DNA of 24,000 nt, taken from positions 1-24,000 of the forward strand of contig DAOVEB010000002.1 in NCBI GenBank assembly GCA_030669205.1, written 5' to 3'. The notes below the pieces were generated by a model. The model was not told where the DNA came from. It searched no databases and saw only the letters and a list, made by a program, of their open reading frames with translations. The DNA comes from Candidatus Parvarchaeota archaeon. GTDB lineage: Archaea; Nanobdellota; Nanobdellia; JAFCGN01; DAOVEB01. Below are positions 4,101 to 24,000 of the stretch, one piece after another. A program made the position numbers and the translations under genes. The stretch's first letter is position 1; each line of letters starts with the position of its first letter.

Positions 4101-4286
4101 CTATCCATTTTCAACTGTTATGGCCTCCTCTGGGCACTGGACCTCGCAGGCCTTGCATCCGATGCACTCTCCCGGCTTCTTCACAACAACTTCCTTGTTG
4201 TCCTTGCCGAAGACATCCATCGGGCAGATGTTTATGCAGGTGCCGCAGTTCGTGCACTTCTTCTTGTCTATAACTGGTCTTGGCAT
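4101..4286 (-). CDS. Small 2x[4Fe-4S] ferredoxin (61 aa).
   Basis: Two CxxCxxCxxxCP motifs (CTNCGTCINICP and CIGCKACEVQCP). The start is taken at the internal ATG (MPRPVIDKKK). The longer track ORF overlaps the upstream gene, and a TATA box sits 24 nt before this ATG. Confidence 0.85.
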   Translation of the reverse strand: MPRPVIDKKKCTNCGTCINICPMDVFGKDNKEVVVKKPGECIGCKACEVQCPEEAITVENG

Positions 4287-4310
4287 AACAGGAATGGCGA
4301 GGTCTAAATG

Positions 4311-4318
4311 ATTTATAA
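4311..4318 (-). promoter_or_regulatory. TATA box (TTATAAAT) 24 nt upstream of the ferredoxin ATG, directly after the stop of the 1082-aa gene.
   Basis: Minus strand reads TAGccTTATAAATcatttagacctcgccattcctgttATG. Confidence 0.45.
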
Positions 4319-4320
4319 GG

Positions 4321-7300: not shown

Positions 7301-7569
7301 CAGTACTGTCCGTTGTTGCAGATAGCAGGGCCGACCAGAGGACAGCCCCAATTTACGCAGAGGGATGTGCCAGAACAACTTAACTCACAAGTGTCACAGG
7401 AGGATGCAGCGGATGGACAATAATTACAGCTGCCACTTCCTCCACCTCCACCACCTCCGCCGCCCGTATTTGGGCCGGTCTCAGCCCCCATCCCTGTCTC
7501 GAACAAGAGAGGAAACAGTAATATGAAAGTAAGTAGGGCTGTTGCAACCAACACTATGTATCTTCTCAT
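4321..7569 (-). CDS. Secreted giant cysteine-rich protein (1082 aa): signal peptide, Gly9 linker, about 600 aa of dense Cys arrays including one MopE-type motif, then a Cys-poor beta-rich region and a Cys-rich C-terminus.
   Basis: N-terminus is [30 protein letters not shown] followed by [12 protein letters not shown] (7438-7464). By hand count there are 23 Cys in the first roughly 118 residues after the linker. Contains [22 protein letters not shown] (6478-6543). ATGA overlap with the upstream gene at 7566-7569. Confidence 0.85.
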
Positions 7570-8459
7570 CCGTACATCAACTCACATTGAGATACAAATT
7601 CCCCATTACGAAAGATTGTCTGGTTGAAGATAAAAAACGTGTCTGTGATGCACTGATATATCTCCAAGGTCATGTCACCGAGTCCTCCACTCCGGTTTAC
7701 GGTTTCCACAGTATAATAGCATCTGACACCATCAAACTCCGCCTCGCCGAGCACTTCCCTTGAAAAACTTTGGTCCCAGTCAACTGAGTAAGTTCCGTTG
7801 CTCACGTGCAACACACCCTCGTAGTCCCATTTCTTGCCAACGTTAAATGGCGTATCATAAGAGAGTAACGGTGGGTCATACATATAGTTGTATTGGTAGT
7901 CTTCAAAGGAATAGACATAAAGGTCACCGTCAACAACGGAGATGTTGAAGTTCTCATAGTTTGTATGTCCTGTTCCTGAGTTTTGGAAGACATAGTGGCC
8001 ATCAACGCGCTCCATATTCACGCTTTCGGTCTTGTTCAAACCCTTGCTGTCCATACACATGTACCACCATGTATGGGTGACGTCCTTCCACATATCGGCC
8101 TGTATGACCTCGTACAGGGGTATACTCCAAGTGTCGTTTGGCACCGAGCCAAACTCGACTTCCAGACCGTCTTTGAATCCATCCCCATCTGTGTCATTTG
8201 AAAGAGGGTCCGTGCCGTAGGTTATCTCTATCCCATCAACTATTCCATCGTTGTCCGTGTCCTGTGCAAGTGGGTCTGTTCCCAGAGAGAGTTCATCCAA
8301 ATCTGTGAGCCCGTCTCCGTCTGTGTCGGATAACAACATGGTTGTTCCGAGGATTATCTCCTGGTAGTTCGGGATTCCGTCACCATCCAAATCCAGCGCA
8401 GAGAAAACGGCTACCGCTACAAAAATTACCAGTACAGCGAAAAGTGCGACCTTTTTCAT
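7566..8459 (-). CDS. Secreted protein with thrombospondin type-3-like Ca-binding repeats (DxDxDGxxDxxE) and a C-terminal Cys-poor beta domain.
   Basis: Signal [28 protein letters not shown], then repeated GTDPLxxDTDxDG units (8160-8393). ATG 8459 is preferred because GGTGGA lies 7 nt upstream. The alternative ATG at 8474 directly abuts the upstream stop. Confidence 0.85.
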
Positions 8460-8474
8460 GTCATAGTCCACCAT

Positions 8475-11400
8475 CTATCCACCACCTGTTGTGAGCGTTG
8501 GCTCGAACTGGACATCAACCGGCGGGCAGTCCGCAGGGCAGGTGTAGCAGCGCTCGTTGTCTTGGCATATCCAGTCGCCGCAGGTTGTTGCAGCCAGCGA
8601 GCTCTGCCTCTCCTCCACGTATATCGGCACAGGCTGCCTTATGTAGGGGTTGACAATGATGTCAAATTGGACCTCCCAGGACATGGGCATCATGTACGGG
8701 TTGAAGTACCTTGTGTTCAGATGTTTGTAACTTCCACTGTCCACCATGCAGTTGATGACGTAGCCCTGCCTATCAAGGTTGAGCATGATGTCCTTCTCAT
8801 CCTTGTCCATGACGCAGGAGAAGTCGTTGTTGCTTATTCCACATGTGAAAGGTTCGACAAGCCGCGCCTCGCCACCCATTGAGTTCCTCAACGTTATATC
8901 CGGTGAGTCGATGTCAGCCTCCTCCTCAACGGTCGAGAATCTCAAGAGGTGAGAGCCGGTTCTCTGGATGCCAAGTGAGATTTCAAGTTCTCCGCGCTCC
9001 ATTCCAGTTCCGCAGGTGGTTCCAAAGACGTTCTCATAACCCTCCGAATAACCTTCGCAGTTGGAAGTGGTCCCTGAGTGGAGCCATGTCGATGCGTAGT
9101 ACTGCATCGAGCCGTTGTTGTTTATACCTGCAGATTCACACCTGTACCTATCTGGTGTGCAGAACGATATGGTTTCATAGTCCAGAATGTAGTCGTCGCT
9201 GGGTAACATGTCCAGGGAGTCAGGTAACTGGCTGTATATCTCCCTGTGGGATGTCCAGAGGTCAGAGAGGTACGCGTCTGAGACGACGGTGGGCCTGATG
9301 TCCAGGCTATAGCTGAACTTGGATGAGACATTGTAGAAGACACCGAACAAATTGGCCCAGACCGCTCCGTCGCCTGAAACCTGCCCGCTGTCGCCGTCAG
9401 TGCTGTAGCTTCCAGCAGACAAACCCGAGCTGTAGACTGTCAGGGGTGTTGCTGGATACGCAGACTGGAAGATAGTGTGTTCAACTGGTGGCTGGTTTGA
9501 GGGGTACGTATCCAAGAGGTGGAAGTTCTCGAACAGGGCAGGAATGTCCTTGTAGACGCATATCTCCCTCTCGACTGTCTGGTACCTTGAACCAGGCACT
9601 GATGGACACTCGCTTTGATCCAACAGATAGACTGAGCAGTCCACAAAGTACGGGGCAGACGAGTTATACCTGATGCTCATGCACTTCTTCAACGGCCCGT
9701 CCACCGTGAACTCCACCTCCTGGTTCTCAGACTCTGTGTCGTCCCACATGATGCCCTTTCCAACCCAGCCCGTGCCATTTGGGGAGGTGTCAGGCACCAC
9801 TGTCAGGTTGCTTATGCACGGCCCCCTATCCCAGCAGCTGAGGGAGTATGTCGCATTGACCAGAGTGTTCTCAATCACATATCTGCTGTTGTCCCCCAGC
9901 ATCGAACCCCATGACGTCTCATAGGAGATTTCAGGGAAGCCTGTGCCGTAGTAGACGTCCACAGACGTAGTTGAGGTGTCGGGTACTATCACTATCTTGC
10001 ACTGGGAGTCGCCTGATGAGAGAACCTGGTGCGGGATGGCTTCCAAGCCGTTGTAAACCACTATGCTCGCGCAGTCCGGTGCCAACACTGTTATCTCCCG
10101 CGGGATTCTCACGGATGAATGGACGTTGCAGGTGTCCCTTCCGACAAATGTTCCAGTTGAGACCGTATCAACAATAATGATTGGGTCGTTGGTTATGTAT
10201 GTTTTATCGGTTTCATTATCATAATAGACGTCCAAAACCGTGCCAAGTATCAGTGGATTCAGATTCCTATCTGTATTGACGTCTGGGTCCTCCGCATAAA
10301 ACTCAAGAAGGAACTGTTTGAAGTTGGGCGCGTCTGCGGTCTCTCCAAAGTTGTTCTCAAAGCTACCTCTCGCACCGAGGGTTACTTCACCACCTATAAC
10401 AGAATAAACTGTGTCATATTCGTTCAGGATTCCACAGCCAGGAGAATTTGCGCATTCATACTCTATAACCTTAAGATAACCATCGAACAGATTTCCCTCG
10501 TCCCTTATCTCAAGTATTGGTGAGACCGAAAGACTAGTTGTCTCGCAGTCTGCGGTGCAGTTTATCTTCCACAACACGTCAATGTCCATTGCAGACGCGA
10601 AGTTGTCGCTGTCGTCGAAAACAAAGACGCTCGCGCTGTTCAGGTCTTCAAGTTCGTCTAGGGTGAAGGTCACGATGCCATCACCATTGGTCTCATCATC
10701 TTTTGTGTGCGACTCAGTCAGCACGCACTCGCAACCCTGGAGGATATGACCAGAACCACATGCTGGGGCCTCTGTAATCAAACAGTTACACGTGCCTGTT
10801 ACGAACTGGCCGCTGGGACATACGGGCTCGGAACTGTCTGAGCACACGCCGCCTGTGCAGGTCGCAGGAGGCTCGCAACGCGCGCTGGACGTTGTCCCAC
10901 ACTCGCACGTTCCGGTGTTGAGAGTGTATCCAGAGTCGCAGGTTGGTGGTGTTCCGGGTGCGGTGGAAGTGTAATGGAGCTTCACTGTGGCTCCGGAAAC
11001 CGGGACAGTGCCGCCTATCTTCCTTACGACCGCTCTTGTGACGTCGTAATCCTTGCCGATATTTATGTGAGTTATACCGTCTGCGTCCGTTATGTTTGAC
11101 GTCACGTTCACAATCCCTTGGCACGCGCATCCAGAGAGCTGGTAGCCAAAGGAGCAGTTGGGGGTCACAGGAAAACCATCACTTAGACACTGCATACCAC
11201 TGCTGTTCACACATCTCCCAATCTCATCTTCTACATAACAGACACCAGCGAATCCATCGGTATCACATTCACCGCAGGTCGCGTCTTCCGGTTCGGTCAA
11301 GCTGAACAGCATCAAGGTATAGTCGCTGAGTCTCTGGCCAGCAGGGCCCAAGAGTACGGCTTCGTACGGGTCTTCAGAGGCAGCGACCAGACCCATGTCC

Positions 11401-14400
11401 AAGGTACCGTCAACTTCAAACTGGTACAACGTTCCGTCAAAGTTCATCGTCACGTTGAACAGTGGCGGCGAATAGGCCTGCCTCTCGAGAAGTTTGAGTG
11501 TGAGCGGCTCCTCTGTCGTGTCCATCTCAAATATGTAGTCGCTTGAAAGGGTTGTAGACTCACACACTGGTTCAGAGTTGACATCTGGCTGGGAGGTCAT
11601 GAAACTCAAGACATCGGCTCCGTGCGCAGAGATGACTGCTGAGAAGGAATCGTTGAACGTTGAGGATATGGCCGTCTCCCCGCGGACCAGGTTGAGGTTC
11701 GCGTCCAATGTTATTCCATACGCCCTTGGCAGGAAATAAAATCCTGTCCAGGAGTTTATCTTGTGGAGCGAAGGGTAGAAGTTCTGCACAGCGTCCGTTG
11801 GCTGGGACTGGCCCGTGCTGGTCCACACCACGTCAAATGAATCAGAGTCAAGCCTGGACGCAAAGCAATAGAGACAATCCGTACACGTGAGCGTCTCCAC
11901 CTGCTCGCATACTAGCATTGAGCCGTCGCAGCCAAGAGCTGTGTATCCATCATCACATCCCTTGGAGCCAGACGGTATTATATCACACTGGACTGGTGAG
12001 GTGCCGCAGACACCGTCAAAGTCTTCGCAGTCTATCCTGTACGAAGCATTTGGTGAGAGGGTGCCTGTGAAGTCTATCTCCGAGTCGCTGGCTATGCTAC
12101 TGACGTATGGCACACAGTCGCACCCACTTTTGTAGTAACCTGCGGCACAGGAGATGGTGTAGGTCCTCTCGCACTCGCAGCTTGACGGGTTGAACGTGTA
12201 GCTGCTTGGGCACTGGCCGTCGCCTGATGGGGGGACCGCACTGAACGGAGCTATTGCAAAGGGTGTATAGAAGAAACCACCGCTTGGCACGCAGTTGCCA
12301 TAGCCGTCGCAGGTCTCGTCAGAGCCGCAGAGTGAGTAGGAAGTGTAGCAGCTGTCGCAGGTGCAGTCGCCGCTGCATCGGTCGCAGAGCGAGTACTGCT
12401 CAATCTCAGTAACAACACGCCAGGTGTGAACTTCAGTGAACTCCATGTCATATACCAAGACATTGTCAAAGTTGCCGTTGAAGTCGAAGCGCGTGAGGTA
12501 GTCGTATGGTTTGGCTGGAGCTGGGGGTTGTGTGAGTGAGGTTCCGATGTCATAGAAGTAGAGTTCGATTGTCCTGTCCCATTCGCTCGCCGGCATTGAG
12601 AGGGTGAAGGTTACGTTCTCTCCAGGCGTCAATATACCATCCCAGACCGGTTCTGTGTCAGATTCGAAAACCTTCTCCATGTTTGCTGTCCTAGCAACGG
12701 CATTGGTTTTCCCAGACCAGAACCCAAGGAGTTTTCCACCACCAAACGGAGCCAGTTGGGTAGTGCCATCCAACCACTCTATTGTACCACCAGTATTAGT
12801 TACACAAGAGATGACTCCACGGTCAACTATGCTACAAATGGCATCATTAGATACGCTCGTCAGGTCGGTAAACTTGCTGGCACCAACATCCATATCAATG
12901 TCCAGTCCTCCATGGGTCACCATAACAAATGGGTCGTCTATATCTTCAGTTCCCGTGTTCTCAACAACCACCTCAATCATCACCCTGTCACTGTCATTGT
13001 TGAAGCCGACGTTTCCGCCCCTGTCCGAACAATCCGAGGATGTGGTATACCTCGTGTTTGAGTTGCAGTCATGGTACTGCTTGTAATTCCCGGCAGAGTT
13101 GAACACTCCGACTTCGGTTATGCGGGCCTCGATGTAGCCGGTGGTTGACCAGCCGTATGGGTCACAATCGGCACCAGTAAGTAACCCTCTATTCAAATTG
13201 CTACAGTAACCATTTCTACAGTCCGCATAATGTTGCCCATCATAGTCCAAAGAAGCGTCGCAGGTGCAGATTTCCTCGTCGGCGTAGTAGACCTTGTCCG
13301 TCATGAACGGGACATTATATGGATTGCCGCATGTCTCGCCGTATATACAGATGTTTTTCATGTATTCTTCCAACTCTGCGATACAAATATCCGATGCATG
13401 ATATGGTTGATAATAGACTTGGTGGAGGTAGCTAGGGCTATAATACTCATCGGCCCTAGGACAGGAATGTTCCATTATATCCAAAAACTCATCATAAGAA
13501 GCCATTGGTGAGATTGTAGAACCATCATTGGCTTCACAGTACGGCTCACAATTTGGGCACATGCAGTACATTCCAGCAGCAATGGAATCCCACCTGCATC
13601 TTGTGTAGTCATAAGGCGGAATGTCACAAATGCTATCCAAGCAACCCGGTTGCACCAATGGAACAGGGAAATATATGTAATCATCATCGCTGCAGGAGTA
13701 TTCAAGACTGTAGTATGCACCTGGCAAGTCCTGATATGTAAACCTGCTAGGAAGTCTTGAAATATCGTGTGACCCGTCTCCTGTTGTCATGGAAGGTCCA
13801 CTTGGATTCATAGTAAGCTCAATCGGGTCTATATCACCAATATCAGCAGATACCGGCATCTGAGTACCTATCTTCATCTCCTGTGCGTTCTGGTCATAAT
13901 AGTCCATAATCCAGCCACTATGTGAAAAATAAAATAGTGTACCATCATGTTTCACAGCAACTGCCCCACAATCAAGGTTGTTGGTGCAAAAATCATACTG
14001 TTCATCTGTGCCGTCCTCATCTAAATCCAATTCAGCGTATCCCAAACAAACATCACTGGAAGTCGGCTTTGTGCCACTTGGTCCAGTCATGTCGCAGACA
14101 ACATTCTGGAAAGTAGCTAAATCAGGTCCAGATGCAATTGAATTTTTCTTCACAGGGAACTGGTAATCAAAGCTGTAATCCGCGCTGCTCCTGCCGCAGG
14201 ACCACGCAGTGTACGCAGGACTGTACTCACAACTGTAGCAAGTGCCACCGTCTGCACAGCCGGAATACAGGAAATCTACAGAATGATCGCCATCCACTAC
14301 CAAGAGGTTGTTAGGACTATATGCAGTAGAACCACAGTAATATGGTGTCACTGGTGTCTCTGGTGTAGTTTCAGTTGCTCTGCAATGCTCATCACACTGA

Positions 14401-14822
14401 GTAGTTGGGGACCCTCCCTGAAATACACATTGCCCATCCATACATCCAGCACCGCTGCAGAGCTCCTGATCCAAACACCAGCAGTTTACATAGATGCCTG
14501 TATAGGTTTGAGAAGCAGGGCATCCTGGTATACCCAAACCAGCACAACTTGGAACAAAGCTGTATTCGCATCCTTGATTAAGGTCTGTCCACTGGTCGGC
14601 TGTGGTGTATGTCACCTGGTCTATACATCCGCTAATTGGCAGACCGGTGCCTTCTCTGAAGCAGTAACCTGTACCTGATGGGCACAGATTTGTACACGCA
14701 TCACACTGAACATAGCTAAGGACCGAGACATATTCTCCGCAGTCAACCTGGGAGTATACCCCCTTAATTAACAGTAGACCTAAGGACAAGAGACATACTA
14801 TGAACAAAACTCTCTTGTTCAT
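8475..14822 (-). CDS. Secreted giant cysteine-rich protein (2115 aa), mosaic of Cys-knot-like arrays and Cys-poor beta-rich segments.
   Basis: One uninterrupted 6.3-kb frame. Sec signal MNKRVLFIVCLLSLGLLLIKGVYS/QVDC. GGAGGAG Shine-Dalgarno site 8 nt upstream. Recurrent C-x-[SAD]-G-x(4,5)-G-(T)-C-x-C modules. C-terminal CGDWICQDNERCYTCPADCPP module. Confidence 0.9.
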   Translation of the reverse strand: MNKRVLFIVCLLSLGLLLIKGVYSQVDCGEYVSVLSYVQCDACTNLCPSGTGYCFREGTGLPISGCIDQVTYTTADQWTDLNQGCEYSFVPSCAGLGIPGCPASQTYTGIYVNCWCLDQELCSGAGCMDGQCVFQGGSPTTQCDEHCRATETTPETPVTPYYCGSTAYSPNNLLVVDGDHSVDFLYSGCADGGTCYSCEYSPAYTAWSCGRSSADYSFDYQFPVKKNSIASGPDLATFQNVVCDMTGPSGTKPTSSDVCLGYAELDLDEDGTDEQYDFCTNNLDCGAVAVKHDGTLFYFSHSGWIMDYYDQNAQEMKIGTQMPVSADIGDIDPIELTMNPSGPSMTTGDGSHDISRLPSRFTYQDLPGAYYSLEYSCSDDDYIYFPVPLVQPGCLDSICDIPPYDYTRCRWDSIAAGMYCMCPNCEPYCEANDGSTISPMASYDEFLDIMEHSCPRADEYYSPSYLHQVYYQPYHASDICIAELEEYMKNICIYGETCGNPYNVPFMTDKVYYADEEICTCDASLDYDGQHYADCRNGYCSNLNRGLLTGADCDPYGWSTTGYIEARITEVGVFNSAGNYKQYHDCNSNTRYTTSSDCSDRGGNVGFNNDSDRVMIEVVVENTGTEDIDDPFVMVTHGGLDIDMDVGASKFTDLTSVSNDAICSIVDRGVISCVTNTGGTIEWLDGTTQLAPFGGGKLLGFWSGKTNAVARTANMEKVFESDTEPVWDGILTPGENVTFTLSMPASEWDRTIELYFYDIGTSLTQPPAPAKPYDYLTRFDFNGNFDNVLVYDMEFTEVHTWRVVTEIEQYSLCDRCSGDCTCDSCYTSYSLCGSDETCDGYGNCVPSGGFFYTPFAIAPFSAVPPSGDGQCPSSYTFNPSSCECERTYTISCAAGYYKSGCDCVPYVSSIASDSEIDFTGTLSPNASYRIDCEDFDGVCGTSPVQCDIIPSGSKGCDDGYTALGCDGSMLVCEQVETLTCTDCLYCFASRLDSDSFDVVWTSTGQSQPTDAVQNFYPSLHKINSWTGFYFLPRAYGITLDANLNLVRGETAISSTFNDSFSAVISAHGADVLSFMTSQPDVNSEPVCESTTLSSDYIFEMDTTEEPLTLKLLERQAYSPPLFNVTMNFDGTLYQFEVDGTLDMGLVAASEDPYEAVLLGPAGQRLSDYTLMLFSLTEPEDATCGECDTDGFAGVCYVEDEIGRCVNSSGMQCLSDGFPVTPNCSFGYQLSGCACQGIVNVTSNITDADGITHINIGKDYDVTRAVVRKIGGTVPVSGATVKLHYTSTAPGTPPTCDSGYTLNTGTCECGTTSSARCEPPATCTGGVCSDSSEPVCPSGQFVTGTCNCLITEAPACGSGHILQGCECVLTESHTKDDETNGDGIVTFTLDELEDLNSASVFVFDDSDNFASAMDIDVLWKINCTADCETTSLSVSPILEIRDEGNLFDGYLKVIEYECANSPGCGILNEYDTVYSVIGGEVTLGARGSFENNFGETADAPNFKQFLLEFYAEDPDVNTDRNLNPLILGTVLDVYYDNETDKTYITNDPIIIVDTVSTGTFVGRDTCNVHSSVRIPREITVLAPDCASIVVYNGLEAIPHQVLSSGDSQCKIVIVPDTSTTSVDVYYGTGFPEISYETSWGSMLGDNSRYVIENTLVNATYSLSCWDRGPCISNLTVVPDTSPNGTGWVGKGIMWDDTESENQEVEFTVDGPLKKCMSIRYNSSAPYFVDCSVYLLDQSECPSVPGSRYQTVEREICVYKDIPALFENFHLLDTYPSNQPPVEHTIFQSAYPATPLTVYSSGLSAGSYSTDGDSGQVSGDGAVWANLFGVFYNVSSKFSYSLDIRPTVVSDAYLSDLWTSHREIYSQLPDSLDMLPSDDYILDYETISFCTPDRYRCESAGINNNGSMQYYASTWLHSGTTSNCEGYSEGYENVFGTTCGTGMERGELEISLGIQRTGSHLLRFSTVEEEADIDSPDITLRNSMGGEARLVEPFTCGISNNDFSCVMDKDEKDIMLNLDRQGYVINCMVDSGSYKHLNTRYFNPYMMPMSWEVQFDIIVNPYIRQPVPIYVEERQSSLAATTCGDWICQDNERCYTCPADCPPVDVQFEPTLTTGGG

Positions 14823-14883: not shown

Positions 14884-17697
14884 TCATGGTATCTCCTCCA
14901 TCTTGCCGTATGGTCCGTAGGCAGGCGCGCATTCCTCCTTAACGATGATATCCCTGGTTTTGAGGTTTTCAGATTCGTCATAGTAGTAGCACTCGTAGGT
15001 CTGCAGAGTGTCTGGCTGGTACTTCACACATATGCCAGGTGTGATGAGCCTGCAGCAGGGCGAAATTATCCTGCCGTTGATGTCCCTGATAGTCTCGTCA
15101 TGGGTTGGCAGGCAGCAGAAGTTGTTCGCGTTGCACACCATCTGTATGTCGTTGACGCCTATCCTCACAACATTGCAGTCGCATGCCTCGTCATCGGTTC
15201 CAGACAGGCATATCGAACCTATTTCATTCAGGTTTTTACATATCTCGCAACTGTACGGAGACGTGACCTCAAAGGTGCTGTTCTCTGCAAAGAGGAGCTG
15301 TATTGGGAGGCCAGCAGCCTGCGCCCTACCTGTCGGGTTAAAGGAGTAGTCGGCCGAATATGTGAGCTGTCGCGACTCGCCTGTGCAGTGGTCGGTCACG
15401 TTGACGTACAGGCTCTTCAGTTTTATCCTCCACGGATAGCCTGTGAGCGCCTCCAGTTTCGCTGGTGAGACCTCCTCGAACTCGCGGAAGAATTCTGCCC
15501 TCAGCGCAGCGTCGAACATGTTCTCGCACTCCTCATTCGGACAGAACGCGCAGTTGAAGACCTCGACGTCGGTCAGGTTGTACTTTGCGCACTCCATGTC
15601 GTCGTATGTGTAGTCCGTGCCTTCCAAGCCCATGTTCCAGATGAGCCTCGTGAGCCAGTCCTGCTTCGGGAGTATGAGGTCTTCGGTTGCGAAGCACTCG
15701 CAATCAGCCTCTCTCACGTCAACTTTGCTCTGGTCAACGGTCCTCAGATTGCAAGCCAGGTCCTTCTTGCAGTAGTAACCTGCTGGATACGTTGTGCTGT
15801 CAATGGTTCTCTCCTCAAAGTGCTCCATGCTGTAACCACTTGGGCAAGTGGCAGTTGGATGGCAGGTGCAGCCATCTGAAACCCCTGTGCAGGAGTTCAG
15901 CTCGCACTGGCAAGTGCCTGAAACTAGGGTCCCAGACGCGCAGTTTGCGTCAGTGGGTGTATAACATGTTATGACATTGCCATCGCACCTCGGAACCTTT
16001 CCACCTGTGCAGAAATCATAGTACAACACATCAATACCATCCAAACATGTCGGAAAACTTGAAATACAGATGTAGTTATAAGTTCCAGGACAGCCACCGA
16101 AGACGTAGGAGTAACTTTCTCTGTAACATTTGCCAGAGTCACATGTTATTCCTAGGCAGGTCGCATCTGTATAGCTGCAACTGTCATAACCTTCAGTCCC
16201 ACAGTAGTACTCCCCATCGCTGTACACGATGTTTTCCGGCTCGCAGTCACTGGGGTCACGCACGCACTTCCCTGAATCACACCGGTCCCCGGAAGAGCAG
16301 GCAGAACCGAGCGTCTCTCCTTCTTTGACGAATACCTGGAGCGTCTTCATGGTGACCGCGTCAAGTATGTAGTCAATCCTGTGTTCAAGCTCGTACTCCT
16401 GCCACCCAATATAGTCTGCGTACTTCCCGGCATACACGCCACTGACATAGTCCTTTGAATAGGAATACAGGTCTGGGAAACCTCCCTTGTAGCCGACCAT
16501 CGAGAGAAGTGAGAGGTAATTGGTGAGGTCGAACCTGCCTGCTGTGATGTTCATGCAGAGCCTCTCCCCCTCGCCCGGTATGAAGGTATACCCTATTTCG
16601 CCTTTGTCCACGTTGATTTCTCCAATTCTGGTGTCAACAAAGTCGAACTTGTCCCTTCTGATGTCATAGTATATCCAGTCCTTGCCGAGCTCCATGACCT
16701 TCCTCACAGCAGGCTCGAGGTAGACGGACCTTCCGGTCAAACTGCCGTACGGGTCGATGAAGACGTGGTACCTTGCTGTGCCAATCTGAATCTCGTCACC
16801 CGAACCCACAGAAGAATCCCTTATGGAAGGTGCCACATCATAGCAGTACTCGTTCGTCTGACCTATGTCAAAGGTATAAGTGGTGTCACCCTCTCCCTTG
16901 TATGAGTAGACCCCAAGATACTTGCCGCCGGCAGCCATGCATCCGGTGAAGTTGTAGCCTGAAACGTCAAACTCGTCAGTTAATGTGAGCTTTGTCCTGT
17001 TCATCGACCTGAGCTCGAGCTGGATGTTTTCTATTGTAACAGTTTCGCCGAGCGCGGATGAGACCATCTCGAGGTTCGGGTCATCGGTCGGGTCGAACTC
17101 AACTGTGCCGTTCAGATAGTAGTAGACGTCATAGGTATGCTTCAGGTACGGCCTCGAGAGCTCGGGGTCGGATATGTATTTGCTGCCGCCTGTCTCCTTG
17201 AAAACGAGATATGTCTCTGACTGCAGAGAGCCGGAAGGTGCGAGGGCGGATGCCCTTGAGAACGGGAAGTAATCGGCGAGGAGCGAGTCAACGGTCTCAA
17301 TCAAATCATTCTCATCAGGTATGCAGAGCTCACCACGGTTCTTCCAGTAACGGACAACGGTTTCGTCGTCAACTGTGGCGAAGAAGTCCGGAACTGGCAG
17401 GAACGGGAGAAAGTCGGCAACATCGATGTAGCGATAGCTTTCGGGAATCAAACACGTGTCCGGGTCCCCACCACCCACAAGACCGGTGAAAAGTATCGCC
17501 CTGTCAAGGGCATAGCGCCTCTCCTGGTCAAAGAGCAGCCTTGCTGATTCGCCGGATGAGATTGTTGTCACGAGCCTGCCCCTTATGTTGGTTGAGCCGC
17601 CGATTGTGGCTGTATAGGAGAATGTGTTCATCAGGGCCCAGAAGGTAGCAACCGCCATCCCGAGTATTATTATGAGGTTTGTCTGTGCACGCTTCAC
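14884..17697 (-). CDS. Giant protein (937 aa) with a pilin-like (class III signal-like) N-terminus and Cys-rich central and C-terminal regions.
   Basis: GTG start at 17697 immediately after the TAG of the upstream gene. The N-terminus (V/M)KRAQTNLIIILGMAVATFWAL resembles the 129-aa pilin N-terminus KAQGLPLNTIVLGALAVLV. A dense Cys block is encoded at 15694-16299. Confidence 0.8.
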   Translation of the reverse strand: MKRAQTNLIIILGMAVATFWALMNTFSYTATIGGSTNIRGRLVTTISSGESARLLFDQERRYALDRAILFTGLVGGGDPDTCLIPESYRYIDVADFLPFLPVPDFFATVDDETVVRYWKNRGELCIPDENDLIETVDSLLADYFPFSRASALAPSGSLQSETYLVFKETGGSKYISDPELSRPYLKHTYDVYYYLNGTVEFDPTDDPNLEMVSSALGETVTIENIQLELRSMNRTKLTLTDEFDVSGYNFTGCMAAGGKYLGVYSYKGEGDTTYTFDIGQTNEYCYDVAPSIRDSSVGSGDEIQIGTARYHVFIDPYGSLTGRSVYLEPAVRKVMELGKDWIYYDIRRDKFDFVDTRIGEINVDKGEIGYTFIPGEGERLCMNITAGRFDLTNYLSLLSMVGYKGGFPDLYSYSKDYVSGVYAGKYADYIGWQEYELEHRIDYILDAVTMKTLQVFVKEGETLGSACSSGDRCDSGKCVRDPSDCEPENIVYSDGEYYCGTEGYDSCSYTDATCLGITCDSGKCYRESYSYVFGGCPGTYNYICISSFPTCLDGIDVLYYDFCTGGKVPRCDGNVITCYTPTDANCASGTLVSGTCQCELNSCTGVSDGCTCHPTATCPSGYSMEHFEERTIDSTTYPAGYYCKKDLACNLRTVDQSKVDVREADCECFATEDLILPKQDWLTRLIWNMGLEGTDYTYDDMECAKYNLTDVEVFNCAFCPNEECENMFDAALRAEFFREFEEVSPAKLEALTGYPWRIKLKSLYVNVTDHCTGESRQLTYSADYSFNPTGRAQAAGLPIQLLFAENSTFEVTSPYSCEICKNLNEIGSICLSGTDDEACDCNVVRIGVNDIQMVCNANNFCCLPTHDETIRDINGRIISPCCRLITPGICVKYQPDTLQTYECYYYDESENLKTRDIIVKEECAPAYGPYGKMEEIP

Positions 17698-18117
17698 CTA
17701 ATCACCCACACTCATATATTTGAACGGTCTCCCTCCTCTGAAAAGCTCATAGGGGTTGAACACCGAGATGGAGCAGTCGCCGGTTATGCTGCCCTCGTAT
17801 ATCTTCTTGTCAGAGTAGTACTGGAGCAAAAACAGCCTGTTTGGGTTCACGTACTCTATGGGAAGTCCCCCATAGTACTCCGAAAGGTCTGCGTAGGAGC
17901 CGATTTCCTGGAATCCCAGCTCATACCTTATGTAGTCGTTCCTGTACAGCGACGTGAGCATTGCGCTGCACTCCTCCATCTTCTCCGTGTTCACAACCTG
18001 GAGGAGTATGGTCTGCTTCGAAGACTCGGCAAAGAGACTATACGTTATTATAAATGCGGAGCTGGAAACTGCCAGAAGTATGATTTCGATGAACGTTATT
18101 GCCCCTTTTCTGTTCAT
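17698..18117 (-). CDS. Pilin-like protein (139 aa) with a class III signal peptide.
   Basis: MNRKG/AITFIEIILLAVSSSAFIITYSLF has basic residues, Gly, then a hydrophobic helix with Glu at +6, which is type IV pilin-like. TAATG overlap with the upstream gene. Confidence 0.75.
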   Translation of the reverse strand: MNRKGAITFIEIILLAVSSSAFIITYSLFAESSKQTILLQVVNTEKMEECSAMLTSLYRNDYIRYELGFQEIGSYADLSEYYGGLPIEYVNPNRLFLLQYYSDKKIYEGSITGDCSISVFNPYELFRGGRPFKYMSVGD

Positions 18118-18941
18118 TAGAATCCACCTCCCGTGAAAGATACAGAGGTGCTACCGCCGACCCCGTACTTTATTGTGGTTGTGAGTATGCCCACGCTGTC
18201 CCTGACGAAAGCCCCATCTTCATCAACGTATCTGATGACAACTGGCACGCTGGACGTATAGACCGAAGACTTGTCCTCAAGGTAGTCTATGAAATAACTG
18301 TCAAGTGTGTAGAGACCTTCGGGTTCCGGTGCCTTGAAGATGAGAGAGACATCCGCGCCCTGGCCAACAATTGCGAGAGCTATATTCAAAGCTATATCAG
18401 TTATTACGACGGCTGTTGAAATAGCACCTGACCAGAACTTTGTAATCTCCTTCGTTGTCTCGACAAAGAGATGAGCCTCTGTCATGTTCAGCTGAGGACT
18501 TGTGCTCAGACGGTGGTTTTTGAGTCTCCGGTTGTCCTCAAGGTCCCTCAACTCAAAGTCGATGACGTAGAGGCTGTAGGTGGTGTCGCCAACCGCGCTC
18601 CACGGAACCTCGGTTATATCGTTGAAGAAGTAACTCTGGATGCAGCCGAAGTATCTGTCCATGTTGAACTTCCTCTCATCCACCACTCCTGGGTAGACCC
18701 GCCTGATTGTACGGATTTTGTCGTTCGTCTCGTCGTAACTCACAGCGCCTGTCTCATAGGCGAAACAGTCGGCAGATGAATAAGCGCGAGTAGCGAGAGA
18801 ATTGGCGAAGCTCCTGGCATCGGCCCAAGTCGAGATGATGGTGATGTCGCTGAACTTGTAGCTTATAGACAGCACCATGAGTGAAAAGAGCATCATGGCT
18901 AGGGAAGCGTTCACGTATGCCATGATTTCTATCTCTGCCAT
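18117..18941 (-). CDS. Membrane-anchored or secreted protein (274 aa) with an N-terminal hydrophobic helix (non-canonical pilin-like); ends in TGGGF.
   Basis: N-terminus MAEIEIMAYVNASLAMMLFSLMVLSISYKF. The ATG lies 3 nt after the upstream TAG, with a GTGAGGT Shine-Dalgarno-like site upstream. No family recognised. Confidence 0.7.
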   Translation of the reverse strand: MAEIEIMAYVNASLAMMLFSLMVLSISYKFSDITIISTWADARSFANSLATRAYSSADCFAYETGAVSYDETNDKIRTIRRVYPGVVDERKFNMDRYFGCIQSYFFNDITEVPWSAVGDTTYSLYVIDFELRDLEDNRRLKNHRLSTSPQLNMTEAHLFVETTKEITKFWSGAISTAVVITDIALNIALAIVGQGADVSLIFKAPEPEGLYTLDSYFIDYLEDKSSVYTSSVPVVIRYVDEDGAFVRDSVGILTTTIKYGVGGSTSVSFTGGGF

Positions 18942-18944
18942 CCT

Positions 18945-21410
18945 CTAAACCTCACAATAACATACCCCTGGTAAAGGCAAGGTGTTAAAAATAGTATTGC
19001 ACCTAGCCCCTGAGAGTGGTTGCAGATTGCTCATATCTCCCGTGAACTCCAGTTCGAACGGGAAACACCTTCCATTACCATACCCTTCGTTGTTACATAT
19101 CTCAGTGCAACCACTGCATTCGATAAATTCGACAAGACACAAAGGAGGTGGGCAGTCAGTTGGACACTGCCAGCTGTCCTCTCCCTCATCACACACCCCA
19201 TCCCCACACTTATAACTCTCCGTGAGTATGTCGTTCCAGTTCATGAGCACAACTGGCTCGCAGCCATTGTTCATGATCTTGACTTCTGCACCGACCCTAT
19301 CGGCTTTGAGGGAGCATTTATAGTACATCGACTGTAAAAATCCTGGTTTCAGTTCGAGGGACCTCGACTCCAGGGGCATTTCAGGTATTATGGTGTTCAA
19401 CGTGTTGCTCAGCACATCCAGGGGTGATTCCATCCCGGCAAGGCTGAAGATGAAGTCAAGTCCGTCACCGAAGAAAGGTATGTCCACTGTCACAGATGGA
19501 AGGAGGTGTGATGTATGCTTGAACCAGTAGGTGTTGCCGCTCTCCCTGAGCTCCCATAAACTCGGATTAATGTCATAGCCGGTGGCTATAAGCATCTGCT
19601 CCAGCAAATTGGGTTCGACTATCTGACCGTCCTTCAGGGTGTAATCTATGGTGAGATTTTCAAATTGGACATCGACACTGCAACCGATGTCGGCAAAGTC
19701 ATAGCAGAAGAGTTTGAAGTTGCCTTGCTCCTCACCCTCCTCGTTCCTTGCGAAGTGGTTCTCGCACAGCATGCCGTTTTCATAGGAAAAGAACCTCGCA
19801 GGTGTGACGTAAACGTCAAAGGTCTGGTCGCTGCCCTTGCACGCCTTCTTCACATAATCCGCTATCTCCCCAACTCCAATTGGATAATAGCTGTCTCCAT
19901 CGCCGCACAGGGTGTCAAAGGTCTCCTTGTTCTTTGAGAGGACAATTTTCCCATCCGACATCTCCAGCGAAGGCGTCTCGTAATTGCCTCCAAAATAGGA
20001 GAGCTGGTTGCGCAGGAAGCACATGTCCTCCCCATTGACACCATAGCTCTTTACAGCCTTTATCTCGTCCTCGTCAGTGGTGAAGTCGATGGTCACAGCA
20101 CCATATTTGCCGGCGTAGAAGTCGTAGAAGCTGTCCGCGCTGTCCAGGTCAACTTGGAACAATATTTGGTTGCCTGTAAGAAAGTCAACCAGTTCCCACA
20201 GCGGGTCATCTGTCCTGCACGACCTGTAAGCTGCGTAGCCGGTTGCAGTCGTCTGTGCCCAGAGAGGCAGGTCCCTGTAGTACCTCAACTTCGAGGCCCA
20301 GTCAGGCATGGACCTAAAGGGTGTGGCTGCCATCCACTTCACTGGTTTGAACCTGCGAACCCCGTCAGAACCAACATAGGTGTACTCTATATAGCTGTTG
20401 TACTTCCTCAGGTCCTCGGCCTTCACGTGGTTCAGCCAGTCGTCCATATCGAGGTCACCGGTGTGGGTCAGGAAGTAATGGTTCATCCCGTTCTCCATAA
20501 CATCCAGTCTGTCTTCGGCTCTTTTTAGATGGCTATATGATGTAGCATATACCCCCCTGCCGGCACCGGGAACACCGTCTATCATGTCCTTAGTGTGTCT
20601 TGCCATAGCTCCGTTAGGGTCTGCTATTATGTCATCCATTATCGATTTGGCATAGTCATCCGCATCATCGTAGTGATTCTTTAGGAACTTCGAATTATCG
20701 AAGGTAGTATCCCCTCTTCTTATTGCGTCCGCGATAGCACCCTGTGCCTCGTGTCTTGGCCTGCCCACTGCATTCATCGAGACAATATCATCGACCTCCA
20801 TACCTCTCACCATGCCGAGCCTGCTCTTCACATTGGTAACCCAGTCGCTCTTCCTGGCCTTTATATCATCTATCCAGTCCCTCAGCTTACTAAGTCTGCT
20901 CTTCGCCTTTTTTTCTATCAACTCCTCTGTCGCCTCTTGCATCCCTTCGGTAACCATATCTCTTGCCTTATCACCTGCCGTATCCTTAACCTCATTTAAC
21001 AGCGCTTTCTTCGCCTTGCCCGCCACCGCCTTCAAGGTTCCGAAGCTCATGTAGATGCACGCGGTCCTCGGGGTGTAGAGCATGCGCTCGTCCTTTGTAA
21101 AGGTCACAGCAGCGCTGACGTCGTCTATCTCCAGCCCCCCCTCGCACACGAACTTTCCGAGCCTCTGGCTCCAAGAGCATGCATGGGGCCCGCGGTACTC
21201 GACATACGCGTCCTCCGGCAGCGAGTAGAGCAGTGATGTCAAGGCTTCAAGCTCGTTTGTGAAGTGTATTATAGGCATGTTCCTCGCTGTGTAGAAGACG
21301 CCTGTCGTGTTCGCATAGTTTATGGACAGGACGAGAAACGCTCCTGAGAGGAGAAGCGTTCCAATCGTTATGGTGATATATGCCTTCCTGGACAGAACCG
21401 GTCTGGACAT
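18945..21410 (-). CDS. Giant mosaic protein (821 aa): pilin-like N-terminus, 279-aa Cys-free highly charged segment, beta-rich middle, C-terminal CGDGVCDEGEDSWQCPTDCPPP module plus a small Cys-knot-like tail.
   Basis: N-terminus MSRPVLSRKA/YITITIGTLLLSGAFLVL, compared with the mini-pilin MRA/VSLTIGTVVALIIALLV. TATA box 23 nt upstream. The CGDG module is encoded at 19143-19208. Confidence 0.8.
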   Translation of the reverse strand: MSRPVLSRKAYITITIGTLLLSGAFLVLSINYANTTGVFYTARNMPIIHFTNELEALTSLLYSLPEDAYVEYRGPHACSWSQRLGKFVCEGGLEIDDVSAAVTFTKDERMLYTPRTACIYMSFGTLKAVAGKAKKALLNEVKDTAGDKARDMVTEGMQEATEELIEKKAKSRLSKLRDWIDDIKARKSDWVTNVKSRLGMVRGMEVDDIVSMNAVGRPRHEAQGAIADAIRRGDTTFDNSKFLKNHYDDADDYAKSIMDDIIADPNGAMARHTKDMIDGVPGAGRGVYATSYSHLKRAEDRLDVMENGMNHYFLTHTGDLDMDDWLNHVKAEDLRKYNSYIEYTYVGSDGVRRFKPVKWMAATPFRSMPDWASKLRYYRDLPLWAQTTATGYAAYRSCRTDDPLWELVDFLTGNQILFQVDLDSADSFYDFYAGKYGAVTIDFTTDEDEIKAVKSYGVNGEDMCFLRNQLSYFGGNYETPSLEMSDGKIVLSKNKETFDTLCGDGDSYYPIGVGEIADYVKKACKGSDQTFDVYVTPARFFSYENGMLCENHFARNEEGEEQGNFKLFCYDFADIGCSVDVQFENLTIDYTLKDGQIVEPNLLEQMLIATGYDINPSLWELRESGNTYWFKHTSHLLPSVTVDIPFFGDGLDFIFSLAGMESPLDVLSNTLNTIIPEMPLESRSLELKPGFLQSMYYKCSLKADRVGAEVKIMNNGCEPVVLMNWNDILTESYKCGDGVCDEGEDSWQCPTDCPPPLCLVEFIECSGCTEICNNEGYGNGRCFPFELEFTGDMSNLQPLSGARCNTIFNTLPLPGVCYCEV

Positions 21411-21433
21411 CGGTCTAATTTAATATTTACATC

Positions 21434-21441
21434 AATATAAA
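21434..21441 (-). promoter_or_regulatory. TATA box (TTTATATT) 23 nt upstream of the 821-aa gene ATG, in a 60-nt AT-rich spacer.
   Basis: Minus strand reads aaacTTTATATTgatgtaaatattaaattagaccgATG. Confidence 0.45.
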
Positions 21442-21454
21442 GTTTAATACAAAT

Positions 21455-21484
21455 ATTATATCTTGTAAAATTATATCTTGTAAA
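21455..21484 (-). repeat. Perfect 15-bp tandem direct repeat (attatatcttgtaaa x2) spanning the stop codon of the 219-aa gene.
   Basis: Read directly; units are 21455-21469 and 21470-21484. Confidence 0.9.
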
Positions 21485-22130
21485 TCGCCAGAAACGGTTC
21501 CAGAGGACCGCCTGTGTCCACCTTTTCAAAGCTCATGCCGCTTATCTCTATATCGGCTCCTTTTGCATAGATGCCGTCCAGCACCTCGTAACCAGGGTCC
21601 ACGTCAACCGCAACAAAGAAGCACTCCACAGGCACACCTATGCAGCACATCGAACCATCCCCAATCTCATAGAGGTCAGTGTTGGCAAGGTCGTTGCAGG
21701 CATTTGACCTGTCAGTCTGGATGTCAGAAAGTGTTGTCATTGCATCTGATACGATATCGTAACCCGGGAAAGACGCTGGGGGCGCAGTCTTTCCCATGCA
21801 GAGGCAGAACCCCCCATCACAGTTCTCGTAGGAGCAGCTGCTCTCAGGTCTGAACTTGTTGTTTTCGTTTAAGGTCTCAAGTGTTGTATCACATGACTCA
21901 CTGCCATAGAGCTGTATTATGAAGTATGTCTGGTAGAGCATGGGTCCAGCCGAACTCCCAGGCTCACTGCTGCAGGCTGTAGACATAGCTCCCCTGCTCG
22001 ACACAAACTTGTCGTATTCGGTGTTGGTGCTGGTAAAGGAGTTGATACAAGTGAAGACAAACATTATGACTATTACGCTGAAGATTATCTGGTACATCGG
22101 GCCAAAAAACGGGATTAGCCCTTTCCTCAT
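21471..22130 (-). CDS. Pilin-like Cys-containing protein (219 aa) with a class III-like signal.
   Basis: N-terminus MRKG/LIPFFGPMYQIIFSVIVIMFVF. ATGA overlap with the upstream gene. Shares the motif C-x-G-x-[FV]-C-L-C-[MI]-G with the 257-aa neighbour. Confidence 0.75.
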   Translation of the reverse strand: MRKGLIPFFGPMYQIIFSVIVIMFVFTCINSFTSTNTEYDKFVSSRGAMSTACSSEPGSSAGPMLYQTYFIIQLYGSESCDTTLETLNENNKFRPESSCSYENCDGGFCLCMGKTAPPASFPGYDIVSDAMTTLSDIQTDRSNACNDLANTDLYEIGDGSMCCIGVPVECFFVAVDVDPGYEVLDGIYAKGADIEISGMSFEKVDTGGPLEPFLAIYKI

Positions 22131-22914: not shown

Positions 22915-23070
22915 TTAGAAGGGCCACAGATTAAAAAGGTTGCCGGAGGAGTTTGTGGTATCGTTCGCCATCTGGAAAAGCGGAGGGATGAAGAAGAAGA
23001 GCACTATCATGACGAGGAGTGCGATTATGAGTGCGACAACTGTGCCGATTGTGAGGCTGACGGCTCTCAT
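22915..23070 (-). CDS. Mini-pilin-like protein (51 aa); not in the ORF track (below size cutoff).
   Basis: Hand translation gives MRAVSLTIGTVVALIIALLVMIVLFFFIPPLFQMANDTTNSSGNLFNLWPF*. ATGA overlap with the upstream 47-aa ORF. Basic-Ala N-terminus plus a hydrophobic helix of about 25 aa. Short tail with two N-x-S/T sequons. Confidence 0.65.
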   Translation of the reverse strand: MRAVSLTIGTVVALIIALLVMIVLFFFIPPLFQMANDTTNSSGNLFNLWPF

Positions 23071-23210
23071 GACGGCACCGTGCTGTTTATGAAGCCGAGT
23101 TGCCTGAGGAAAAAATCGCCTATGAAGAATATCGCGAGGACCAGGATGATGAGCGCGAACACAATTACCACAAGCGTCTCAAGCGACAGGCCGATGGCCC
23201 CCCTTTTCAT
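23067..23210 (-). CDS. Mini-pilin-like protein (47 aa), Flp/Epd-like class III signal; not in the ORF track.
   Basis: Hand translation gives MKRGAIGLSLETLVVIVFALIILVLAIFFIGDFFLRQLGFINSTVPS*. Has a KRG/A cleavage-type motif, Glu in the early helix, and an N-S-T sequon in the tail. TATA-like box 21 nt upstream. Confidence 0.65.
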   Translation of the reverse strand: MKRGAIGLSLETLVVIVFALIILVLAIFFIGDFFLRQLGFINSTVPS

Positions 23211-23318: not shown

Positions 23319-23708
23319 TTAAATGGCTGTGCAGCAATATACATGGTTGGTTGCGTCGTCCGCGCATGACCCGCCTTTGATTGTTATTATTTCTCCACCT
23401 GAAAGTGAAAAGGCGCAACCGGTTGTTATGTAGTCGCCGCAGTCGGTTGTCGCAGTGTTGCTTGGGTCAGGGTCAGAGCAGAAATTGCTACCCCTCGCTG
23501 CTGCAACCGCTGTTGTCTCTGAAGAGTATATGTTGCTGAGTCCTGTGCAGTATGTCTGACAGTTGACGTACGCGTCAGGAGCAAGTCCGAAGATGCTTCT
23601 GAACATGTTTCCTATTCCTGGGACGAAAACTGCTGCCAAGATTACTAGTACTAAAACTGCTAATGCTCCCAAAACAATTGTGTTTAATGGTAAACCTTGT
23701 GCTTTCAT
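23319..23708 (-). CDS. Candidate major pilin (129 aa): class III signal peptide, hydrophobic N-helix, small 8-Cys globular domain.
   Basis: N-terminus MKAQG/LPLNTIVLGALAVLVLVILAAVFVPG. It has its own consensus TATA box and its own terminator. The C-terminal domain has 8 Cys, so up to 4 disulfides are possible. Confidence 0.8.
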   Translation of the reverse strand: MKAQGLPLNTIVLGALAVLVLVILAAVFVPGIGNMFRSIFGLAPDAYVNCQTYCTGLSNIYSSETTAVAAARGSNFCSDPDPSNTATTDCGDYITTGCAFSLSGGEIITIKGGSCADDATNHVYCCTAI

Positions 23709-23768: not shown

Positions 23769-23900
23769 TTAAAATATGGTCCCGGGGAACGAACTGTTAA
23801 TCATTCCGATAATGGCCGGCGCGCCGAAGAAGATGAGGTAAATCACTATGATGATGATTCCAAGGATTAGGGGGATTATGTACTTGAGCGCGAGGTTCAC
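23769..23900 (-). CDS. Possible small hydrophobic protein (43 aa, GTG start) resembling the N-terminal module of the 257-aa protein.
   Basis: Hand translation gives (V/M)NLALKYIIPLILGIIIIVIYLIFFGAPAIIGMINSSFPGTIF*. It begins VNL like the 257-aa protein and has an N-S-S sequon after the helix. There is no ATG start, so the call is tentative. Confidence 0.3.
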   Translation of the reverse strand: MNLALKYIIPLILGIIIIVIYLIFFGAPAIIGMINSSFPGTIF

Positions 23901-23907
23901 AGCGCCC

Positions 23908-24000
23908 CTAGAACTGAAAGGTAAAAATCTTGGCAATCTGACCAATTATCGACTCACCTCTCTGGTTGAGGAAATCTATCACGAAGAGGAATGCGACGAG
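23908..24000 (-). CDS. 3' end of another small or hydrophobic ORF entering from the right edge.
   Basis: Hand translation gives ...LVAFLFVIDFLNQRGESIIGQIAKIFTFQF*. The architecture (hydrophobic helix followed by a short tail) resembles the mini-pilins. Only 30 codons are visible. Confidence 0.3.
   Translation of the reverse strand, partial: LVAFLFVIDFLNQRGESIIGQIAKIFTFQF

Follow-up and report, generated by a model that had tools for sequence, protein, structure and literature searches.

The closest described systems to the locus considered here are the archaeal type IV filaments of the Epd type (system 1) and the modular pilins of bacteria. The Epd pilins of Methanococcus maripaludis are processed at sites of the form RA↓QI and KG↓QV, KG↓QL or KG↓QI, and their peptidase, EppA, needs Gln at position +1 (PMC4371748). 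Archaeal system-1 loci have been reported in DPANN archaea, and system-1 and system-2 loci encode many pilins together with large adhesin-like proteins. Bacterial modular pilins reach 860 amino acids (aa) and have been modelled at the filament tip (Raynaud et al. 2021). The present analysis concerns a 937-aa protein encoded within a 24-kilobase (kb) stretch of a Candidatus Parvarchaeota contig (DAOVEB010000002.1, positions 1 to 24,000; hereafter, the window). The protein has about an even chance of being a modular subunit, similar to a minor pilin, in an adhesion or tip complex, and the gene cluster that encodes it probably forms an adhesion apparatus. Features are located in Table 1.

The N-terminus of the 937-aa protein reads VKRA↓QTNLIIILG..., the arrow marking the predicted cleavage site. 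Its leader is short and basic, ends in [KR][GA], is followed by Gln at +1 and stands before a hydrophobic stretch, and the VKRA↓QT site is of the same type as the Epd pilin sites processed by EppA (PMC4371748). The stretch of about 20 hydrophobic residues (residues 4-27) is the only hydrophobic segment of the protein and heads a long helix of the alpha-1 type: AlphaFold2, run with a 16-sequence alignment, predicted a single helix over residues 2-74 and beta-rich domains after it. A short basic leader with [KR][GAS]↓Q[TVAI]N and about 20 hydrophobic residues was found in all of the full-length family members examined (13/13), down to 21% identity (for example MRKGQVNIVIAIGM, MKKGQINALIAFGM, MNNKGQANIIAVIGM and VSKGQANLIIALGM). 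Because the motif is kept in all 13, the N-terminus is taken as a class III (prepilin-type) signal and not as a chance likeness, an assignment that sequence features support well. An earlier, sequence-only reading of the window had proposed a pilin-type N-terminus and had aligned it with that of the candidate major pilin, a 129-aa protein. The first proposal is borne out by the family-wide motif, the EppA-type site, the predicted helix and the enrichment of the motif in neighbouring genes; the second agrees with a K-A-Q triplet and hydrophobic run common to the 937-aa (VKRAQTNLIIILGMAVATFWALM) and 129-aa (MKAQGLPLNTIVLGALAVLVLV) proteins.

The start codon is GTG, directly abutted in the same frame by the TAG of the 139-aa gene (...GGT GAT TAG GTG AAG CGT GCA CAG...), with a Shine-Dalgarno-like GGTGAT upstream. 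The upstream TAG makes an earlier start in this frame impossible, and the GTG is backed by homologues, since they begin at the equivalent residue (MKKAQTN, MRKGQVN, VNKAQIN). The sequence-only reading, which had placed the GTG right after this TAG and had held a start elsewhere to be unlikely, was thus right on both counts. The protein is acidic (142 Asp plus Glu vs. 73 Lys plus Arg) and contains 49 Cys in total, and its body is modelled as beta-rich and extracellular.

Class III-like N-termini are also present in the neighbouring 139-, 219-, 821- and 129-aa proteins and in four tiny open reading frames (ORFs). A crude class III rule was passed by 9 of the 11 pilin-side genes of the cluster (the four tiny ORFs included). 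None of six housekeeping genes passed it, and among 470 background ORFs (≥ 150 aa, from DPANN FtsZ loci) 8 did. This strong enrichment argues against a conventional Sec signal peptide and against a signal anchor left uncleaved, either of which would make the 937-aa protein a secreted or type II membrane-anchored Cys-rich adhesin unrelated to type IV filaments. Such a signal is improbable, although signals of every type combine a basic n-region with a hydrophobic stretch and no pilin hidden Markov model of Pfam or NCBIfam matches. Sec n-regions are normally not conserved in sequence, whereas [KR][GAS]-Q-x-N is kept throughout the family. The hydrophobic run passes unbroken into the predicted 73-residue helix, and it is followed by no good site of the A-x-A type; the nearest candidate is YTA↓T, with Tyr at -3 and the helix predicted to continue to residue 74. 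The signals of the three Sec-type proteins in this cluster are clearly unlike this N-terminus, having canonical c-regions and the cleavage sites VYS↓Q, GMGA↓E and FSA↓L.

The locus resembles Epd-type system 1 in the type of processing site ([KR][GA]↓Q plus an aliphatic residue) and in being a multigene cluster of many pilin-like and large adhesin-like proteins. It differs in that neither sequence comparison nor Pfam relates the 937-aa protein to Epd pilins, which range from fewer than 100 to a few hundred aa, and in that several of its neighbours have a residue other than Gln at +1. The epd locus of M. maripaludis also holds genes for the ATPase, the platform protein and EppA, and the present cluster does not.

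The 937-aa gene is the fourth of five core genes, whose order is a pilin-headed protein of 630-850 aa, a protein of 260-300 aa, a pilin-like protein of 128-213 aa, a member of the 937-aa family, and a Sec-type giant of 2087-3283 aa. This order is kept in eight other loci (L001, L002/3, L084, L085, L089/90, L091, L092 and L093, with L002/L003 and L089/L090 counted as one locus each), and BLAST backs orthology at each core position. The core genes abut or overlap in the window (gaps of 3, -1 and 0 nucleotides (nt)), and in some lineages the giants carry Laminin_G_3 or a YNCE beta-propeller. Small pilin genes (118-164 aa), tiny ones (46-62 aa) and genes for two proteins of about 220-280 aa lie ahead of the core in the window, L084 and L092.

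Housekeeping genes occupy the low-coordinate end of the window (L11, NusG/Spt5, FtsZ, an FKBP-type isomerase, Alba and a ferredoxin). The cluster lies directly upstream of (ferredoxin-)Alba-FKBP in the window, L089 and L092, with FtsZ following in the window and L092, and L007 has a fragment like the C-terminus of the 2115-aa protein, the giant of the window, about 2 kb upstream of FtsZ. The source organism is placed as a DPANN archaeon of the Woesearchaeales type because its FtsZ is 76-78% identical to that of 'Parvarchaeota/Woesearchaeota' metagenome-assembled genomes. Between the window and L092, identity was 73% for FtsZ and 28-36% for the cluster proteins; over the lineages sharing the chromosomal position, cluster proteins were at 25-45% identity, with FtsZ at about 73%. 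The much faster divergence of the cluster than of FtsZ is what a surface or host-contact system would be expected to show. An origin in a mobile element or virus was considered and is unlikely: guanine-plus-cytosine content is uniform between cluster and flanks, the position at Alba-FKBP-FtsZ is kept in three lineages, and the L007 fragment lies near FtsZ.

The gene logic is like that of GspH-I-J-K and of FimU-PilV-W-X with PilY1, with four pilin-like genes in a row and then a large Sec-secreted non-pilin. The analogy with large tip pilins such as GspK and the PilY1-associated minor pilins, drawn in the sequence-only reading, fits this gene order. The mature 937-aa protein (QTNLII...) has no Asp or Glu within its first 45 residues, so the acidic residue at +5 is absent. 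GspK likewise has no acidic residue at +5, and the small 139-aa partner has the sequence ITFIE. Differences from the minor-pilin complexes are that two of the four proteins exceed 800 aa, that the 274-aa member lacks a leader in this lineage and carries a further hydrophobic helix, and that neither the PilY1 beta-propeller nor DUF2341 is present in the window proteins, with Laminin_G_3 present in the giants of other lineages. As a separate observation, the 139-aa protein has a bacterial-looking KG-A-ITFIE (cf. G↓FTLIE) with a conserved Glu and invariant C50 and C115; the presence of an acidic residue near +5 in it and its absence from the 937-aa protein is an asymmetry like that between bacterial body and tip subunits.

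Under the explanation proposed here, a prepilin peptidase encoded elsewhere would cleave the 937-aa protein at Ala4↓Gln5. A complex of the minor-pilin type would arise as its mature N-terminal helix bundles with the helices of three partners (821, 274 and 139 aa). The complex may prime or cap a thin filament of small pilins (129 aa, or 47-58 aa), and would adhere to a host cell or surface through what it displays, namely the variable inserts of the 937-aa protein and the 2115-aa giant encoded with it.

By its alignment, the 937-aa family is a small orphan family with a scaffold of about 720 columns and insertion hot spots, the latter because members hold different inserts at different sites. 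An exhaustive HMMER search of 1.84 billion representative proteins gave 22 relatives (17 at E ≤ 1e-10) spanning 630-1570 aa. A word-index search of 5.8 billion proteins gave three relatives, a second one with the 16-sequence alignment returned the same three proteins and nothing more, and scans of genome and metagenome contigs gave no confirmed relative. Inserts with Cys were found in P0007 (155 aa, 12 Cys, after about residue 307) and P0009 (155 aa, 16 Cys, after about residue 103). P0020 has a 78-aa dockerin after about residue 126 (Dockerin_1, 28.2 bits vs. a cutoff of 22.9), P0012 has a dockerin score just under the cutoff, and P0021 has an insert of about 370 aa after about residue 785. 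Members of 1200-1570 aa have a C-terminal extension with sub-threshold DUF2341 (PF10102; 21.5 bits in P0016 and 17.2 bits in P0021, cutoff 23.4 bits), which has been described from predicted PilY-like adhesins in the pilus loci of methanogens; Pfam found neither DUF2341 nor the PilY1 beta-propeller in the 937-aa protein. P0016-P0022 (1178-1570 aa) form a long, Cys-poor, Asn/Ser/Thr-rich subfamily with the DUF2341-like C-terminal extension, as at L091 (GCA_027370795.1) and L085, and the giants paired with it have 1537+ to 3283 aa and YNCE-type beta-propellers.

The inserts (dockerin, DUF2341-like) are extracellular modules, and this modularity was counted in favour of a minor-pilin-like subunit. 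Streptococcus sanguinis PilB and PilC, and CofB and TcpB of type IVb pili, likewise combine a pilin-type N-terminus with bulky modules that vary from relative to relative, and a tip location and a role in adhesion have been proposed for bacterial modular pilins as they are here. The bacterial modules are C-terminal on a small pilin module, whereas those of the present family are inserted at several sites in a large scaffold; the 937-aa protein is also archaeal and larger than the 860-aa maximum of the bacterial survey. Of the marks of a modular pilin, the pilin-type N-terminus and the extra modules (the Cys insert, and the dockerin of P0020) are seen, a separable pilin module being putative.

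The Cys insert of the 937-aa protein occupies residues 462-675. The sequence-only reading had noted a dense Cys array at nt 15694-16299, and these positions correspond exactly to the codons from Cys467 to Cys668, a span of 202 residues that contains 26 of the 49 Cys. Residues 462-675 are lacking in the alignment from P0003 (32% identical) and from all more distant relatives, and the 214-aa insertion is common only to the 937-aa protein and P0002 (64% identical). It would be a swappable, disulfide-stabilised display module in a conserved scaffold, outside the assembly core.

The insert was also compared with the 2115-aa protein, in which the module C-x-S-G-x3-S-G-T-C-x-C (CASGTLVSGTCQC) had been said to recur. 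No exact match was present there; one near-exact copy with Ser replaced by Thr (CPSGQFVTGTCNC) and three relaxed copies (CDSGYTLNTGTCEC, CGSGHILQGCEC and CAAGYYKSGCDC) were, against about 0.002 matches expected from residue shuffles, a figure to be read with the relaxed pattern having been picked after the data were seen. Local alignment of the insert with the 2115-aa protein scored 111 vs. 64 ± 9.5 for shuffled sequences (z 4.9; none of 200 composition-preserving shuffles reached 111), and z was -0.2 with the more Cys-rich 1082-aa protein. Residues 1176-1370 of the 2115-aa protein resemble the insert weakly but specifically, and composition-corrected BLAST gave E 0.002 in the tiny database of window proteins. 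The short module was absent from orthologues of the 937- and 2115-aa proteins in other lineages. These sequence comparisons point to a variable module exchanged or duplicated between the two genes within the lineage; common ancestry is not indicated, because the Cys block occurs only in the 937-aa protein and P0002. Global homology of the two proteins was rejected, since the lineage-specific insert alone aligns and the module is missing from other-lineage orthologues. The claim that the module links the giants evolutionarily holds for the similarity of the variable insert and fails for common ancestry, the block being no part of the family core.

Several results weigh against a minor-pilin-like subunit. 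No assembly ATPase, platform protein or prepilin peptidase gene was found in the window, nor in the 10 kb upstream of three homologues, that of the 937-aa protein in L091 and in L092 and that of the 274-aa protein in L090. The 274- and 257-aa proteins are leaderless in the window lineage. Searches of Pfam and NCBIfam (E ≤ 1-10) with the 937-aa protein, its first 72 residues and its neighbours gave no pilin or class III signal family, and for the 937-aa protein no family of any other kind. Archaeal class III signals (SPIII) also serve surface proteins that form no filament, as in the bindosome.

Part of this evidence is what would be expected of a class III-processed but filament-independent surface complex, helix-anchored or built as a short pseudopilus-like stub, which would hold the giants as a bindosome-like or envelope platform. 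Besides the missing ATPase and platform genes at the loci checked and the wide occurrence of archaeal SPIII proteins other than classical pilins, the cores of L089/90 and L091 had no small pilin genes called among their upstream neighbours, the second hydrophobic helix of the 274-aa partner suggests residence in the membrane, and a filament would have to accommodate two bulky subunits of 821 and 937 aa. This alternative is nevertheless unlikely, if the nearest of those considered, given that the cores of the window, L084 and L092 come directly after small and tiny pilin genes whose N-termini are highly conserved, as is typical for subunits of a filament, and that archaeal pilin sets are usually encoded apart from the machinery. 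The Sulfolobales bindosome itself differs in its substrate-binding-protein domain and ATP-binding cassette (ABC) transporter context, neither of which the 937-aa protein has; the partners here are pilin-like and giant Cys-rich proteins.

Structure comparisons also count against a minor-pilin-like subunit. The AlphaFold model of the 937-aa protein was of moderate confidence (mean predicted local distance difference test (pLDDT) 66.5), with pLDDT of 23-46 over residues 500-610 in the Cys block. Foldseek of the model gave nothing at E ≤ 0.001 against PDB (best E 0.018) or BFVD (best E 1.3e-3), with template-modelling (TM) scores ≤ 0.14 among the matches listed, and the family profile gave noise against PDB sequences (E ≥ 0.038). 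No match to a pilin or pseudopilin, including likeness to GspK or PilX, was obtained in the PDB profile search or in Foldseek, and the protein has no sequence or fold likeness to members of minor-pilin tip complexes. The pilin alpha-beta fold is thus unconfirmed in the model, as no structure matched. The model of the 274-aa partner had a pLDDT of 55.7, and its fold search returned noise.

Among the top Foldseek matches, class II viral fusion glycoproteins recurred (Rift Valley fever virus Gc, 4hj1; alphavirus E1, 8ihp and 9eau; a phasivirus glycoprotein at E 1.3e-3 and prob 0.41), as did staphylococcal leukocidin/hemolysin pore-formers, in two libraries (PDB and BFVD). The beta-rich core could on that ground be a membrane-interacting or fusogenic module, like a class II fusion protein or a pore-former, that breaches the host membrane or fuses with it, the pilin-type helix being its anchor. 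This is highly improbable: none of these matches was significant, TM-scores were 0.03-0.12 with root-mean-square deviations of 22-30 Å, WD40 and other generic beta-rich proteins ranked alongside, and model confidence was moderate.

A broader form of the minor-pilin reading is put forward tentatively, as doubtful. In Woesearchaeales-type DPANN archaea, the conserved and fast-evolving module of four pilin-like proteins and a giant secreted protein may correspond to the bacterial minor-pilin/PilY1 tip complex while consisting of unrelated protein families (two of the proteins exceeding 800 aa). It would serve episymbionts as an organelle of host recognition and attachment, its specificity retuned by swapping Cys-rich, dockerin or beta-propeller modules at fixed sites and between neighbouring genes.

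Table 1. Location of the features of the 937-aa gene and its cluster in the window (arrow, predicted cleavage site)
Feature	Position (nt)	Strand	Remarks
937-aa pilin-headed protein, whole gene	14884..17697	-	GTG start; mature protein about 104 kDa
Leader V/M-K-R-A, residues 1-4	17686..17697	-	Predicted prepilin-peptidase cleavage Ala4/Gln5; motif conserved in family
Hydrophobic N-terminal segment, residues 5-27, QTNLIIILGMAVATFWALMNTFS	17617..17685	-	Sole hydrophobic segment of the 937-aa protein
Predicted continuous alpha-helix, residues 2-74, pilin alpha-1-like	17476..17694	-	Holds conserved FDQERRYALDRAILFTG; AlphaFold pLDDT 59-81
Conserved N-terminal extracellular region, residues 75-461	16315..17475	-	Beta-rich; in all family members
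Lineage-specific Cys-rich insertion, residues 462-675	15673..16314	-	214 aa, 26 Cys; not in P0003 or more distant relatives; low model confidence
Module CASGTLVSGTCQC, residues 586-598	15904..15942	-	Relaxed form common to 2115-aa protein
Conserved C-terminal region, residues 676-937	14887..15672	-	Invariant Cys pairs CC861/862 and CC881/882
821-aa pilin-headed protein (..SRKA↓YITITIG..)	18945..21410	-	First gene of the five-gene core
274-aa core protein	18117..18941	-	Leaderless here; leaders MRG↓Q (L089) and KKG↓Q (L084); second hydrophobic helix, residues 171-202
139-aa pilin-like protein (MNRKG↓AITFIE...)	17698..18117	-	Stop abuts 937-aa GTG; conserved partner gene
2115-aa Sec-type giant Cys-rich protein	8475..14822	-	Conserved last core member; conserved region at about residues 360-806
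Two further Sec-type proteins, 302 aa and 1082 aa	4321..8474	-	Close the cluster
AT-rich 60-nt gap	21411..21470	-	TTTATAT about 30 nt before 821-aa ATG; possible core operon promoter, from sequence only
219-aa pilin-like protein (MRKG↓LIPFF...)	21471..22130	-	
257-aa protein, N-terminal hydrophobic helix	22127..22900	-	Leaderless here
Tiny pilin-like ORF, 51 aa (MRA↓VSLTIG...)	22915-23070	-	
Tiny pilin-like ORF, 47 aa (MKRG↓AIGLSLETLVV...)	23067-23210	-	
129-aa candidate major pilin (MKA↓QGLPLNTIV...)	23319..23708	-	TTTATATA element precedes; N-terminus highly conserved in L084 and L092
Tiny pilin-like ORF, 58 aa (..SSRG↓AVNLALKY...)	23769..23945	-	Start approximate
Tiny pilin-like ORF, 49 aa (MKRG↓VLTREAILL)	23908-24000	-	Cut at window end

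All genes judged real in the window are on the minus strand, and Rfam matched no RNA family in the window. The sequencing runs SRR26080959-62 include the locus. The tiny ORFs of 47 and 51 aa fall below the 80-aa threshold of the ORF listing, and homologues of the tiny ORFs are called as genes in L001, L084, L086-88 and L092. By analogy the tiny ORFs could be real filament subunits, since the major pilin of M. maripaludis is also very short. The 274-aa protein, the best-conserved protein of the cluster, begins MAEIEIMAYV... with Glu at positions 3 and 5, and its second hydrophobic helix is unusual for a pilin. A gene of L084 with the same position and size as the 257-aa gene has a KKG↓ leader; BLAST gave no support for orthology.

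The 821-aa (residues 735-755, CGDGVCDEGEDSWQCPTDCPP) and 2115-aa (residues 2081-2101, CGDWICQDNERCYTCPADCPP) proteins have a C-terminal module in common (52% identity over 21 aa; E 5e-4 in the window database). In the 302-aa protein (7566-8474, minus strand), Pfam recognised four bacterial thrombospondin type 3 Ca-binding repeats (TSP3_bac, E 1.3e-22); the 1082-aa protein (4321-7569, minus strand) is 9.5% Cys, with 11 consecutive Gly following its signal peptide. Each of these genes overlaps or abuts its neighbours, and the L089 and L092 clusters have neither. The ferredoxin ORF as listed (4101-4400, minus strand) overlaps the 1082-aa gene by 80 nt, and its true start is therefore probably an internal Met (MPRPVIDKKKC...). 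The L11 protein (570-1250, minus strand) has a Glu/Ala-rich C-terminal tail of about 60 aa.

Large proteins with class III signals and modular pilins are kinds already known. New are an unannotated protein family of roughly 100 kDa that is confined to DPANN-type archaea, the conserved core of four pilin-like proteins and a giant in which it is embedded, the insertion-hot-spot architecture and the conserved chromosomal position. Should the N-terminus prove to be no more than a membrane anchor, the cluster would remain a surface adhesion locus specific to its lineage, of ordinary interest. As a minor-pilin-like subunit, the 937-aa protein would extend the idea of bacterial modular pilins to archaea at about 100 kDa per subunit; the predictions are that cleavage occurs at Ala4↓Gln5, that four helices form a complex of the pilin type, that the giant adhesin is displayed and that modules insert at hot spots. 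The attachment of DPANN archaea to their hosts, and host recognition, are little understood in molecular terms, and most DPANN surface proteins are unannotated; a run of hypothetical genes would here become a defined candidate apparatus with a conserved anatomy and chromosomal position.

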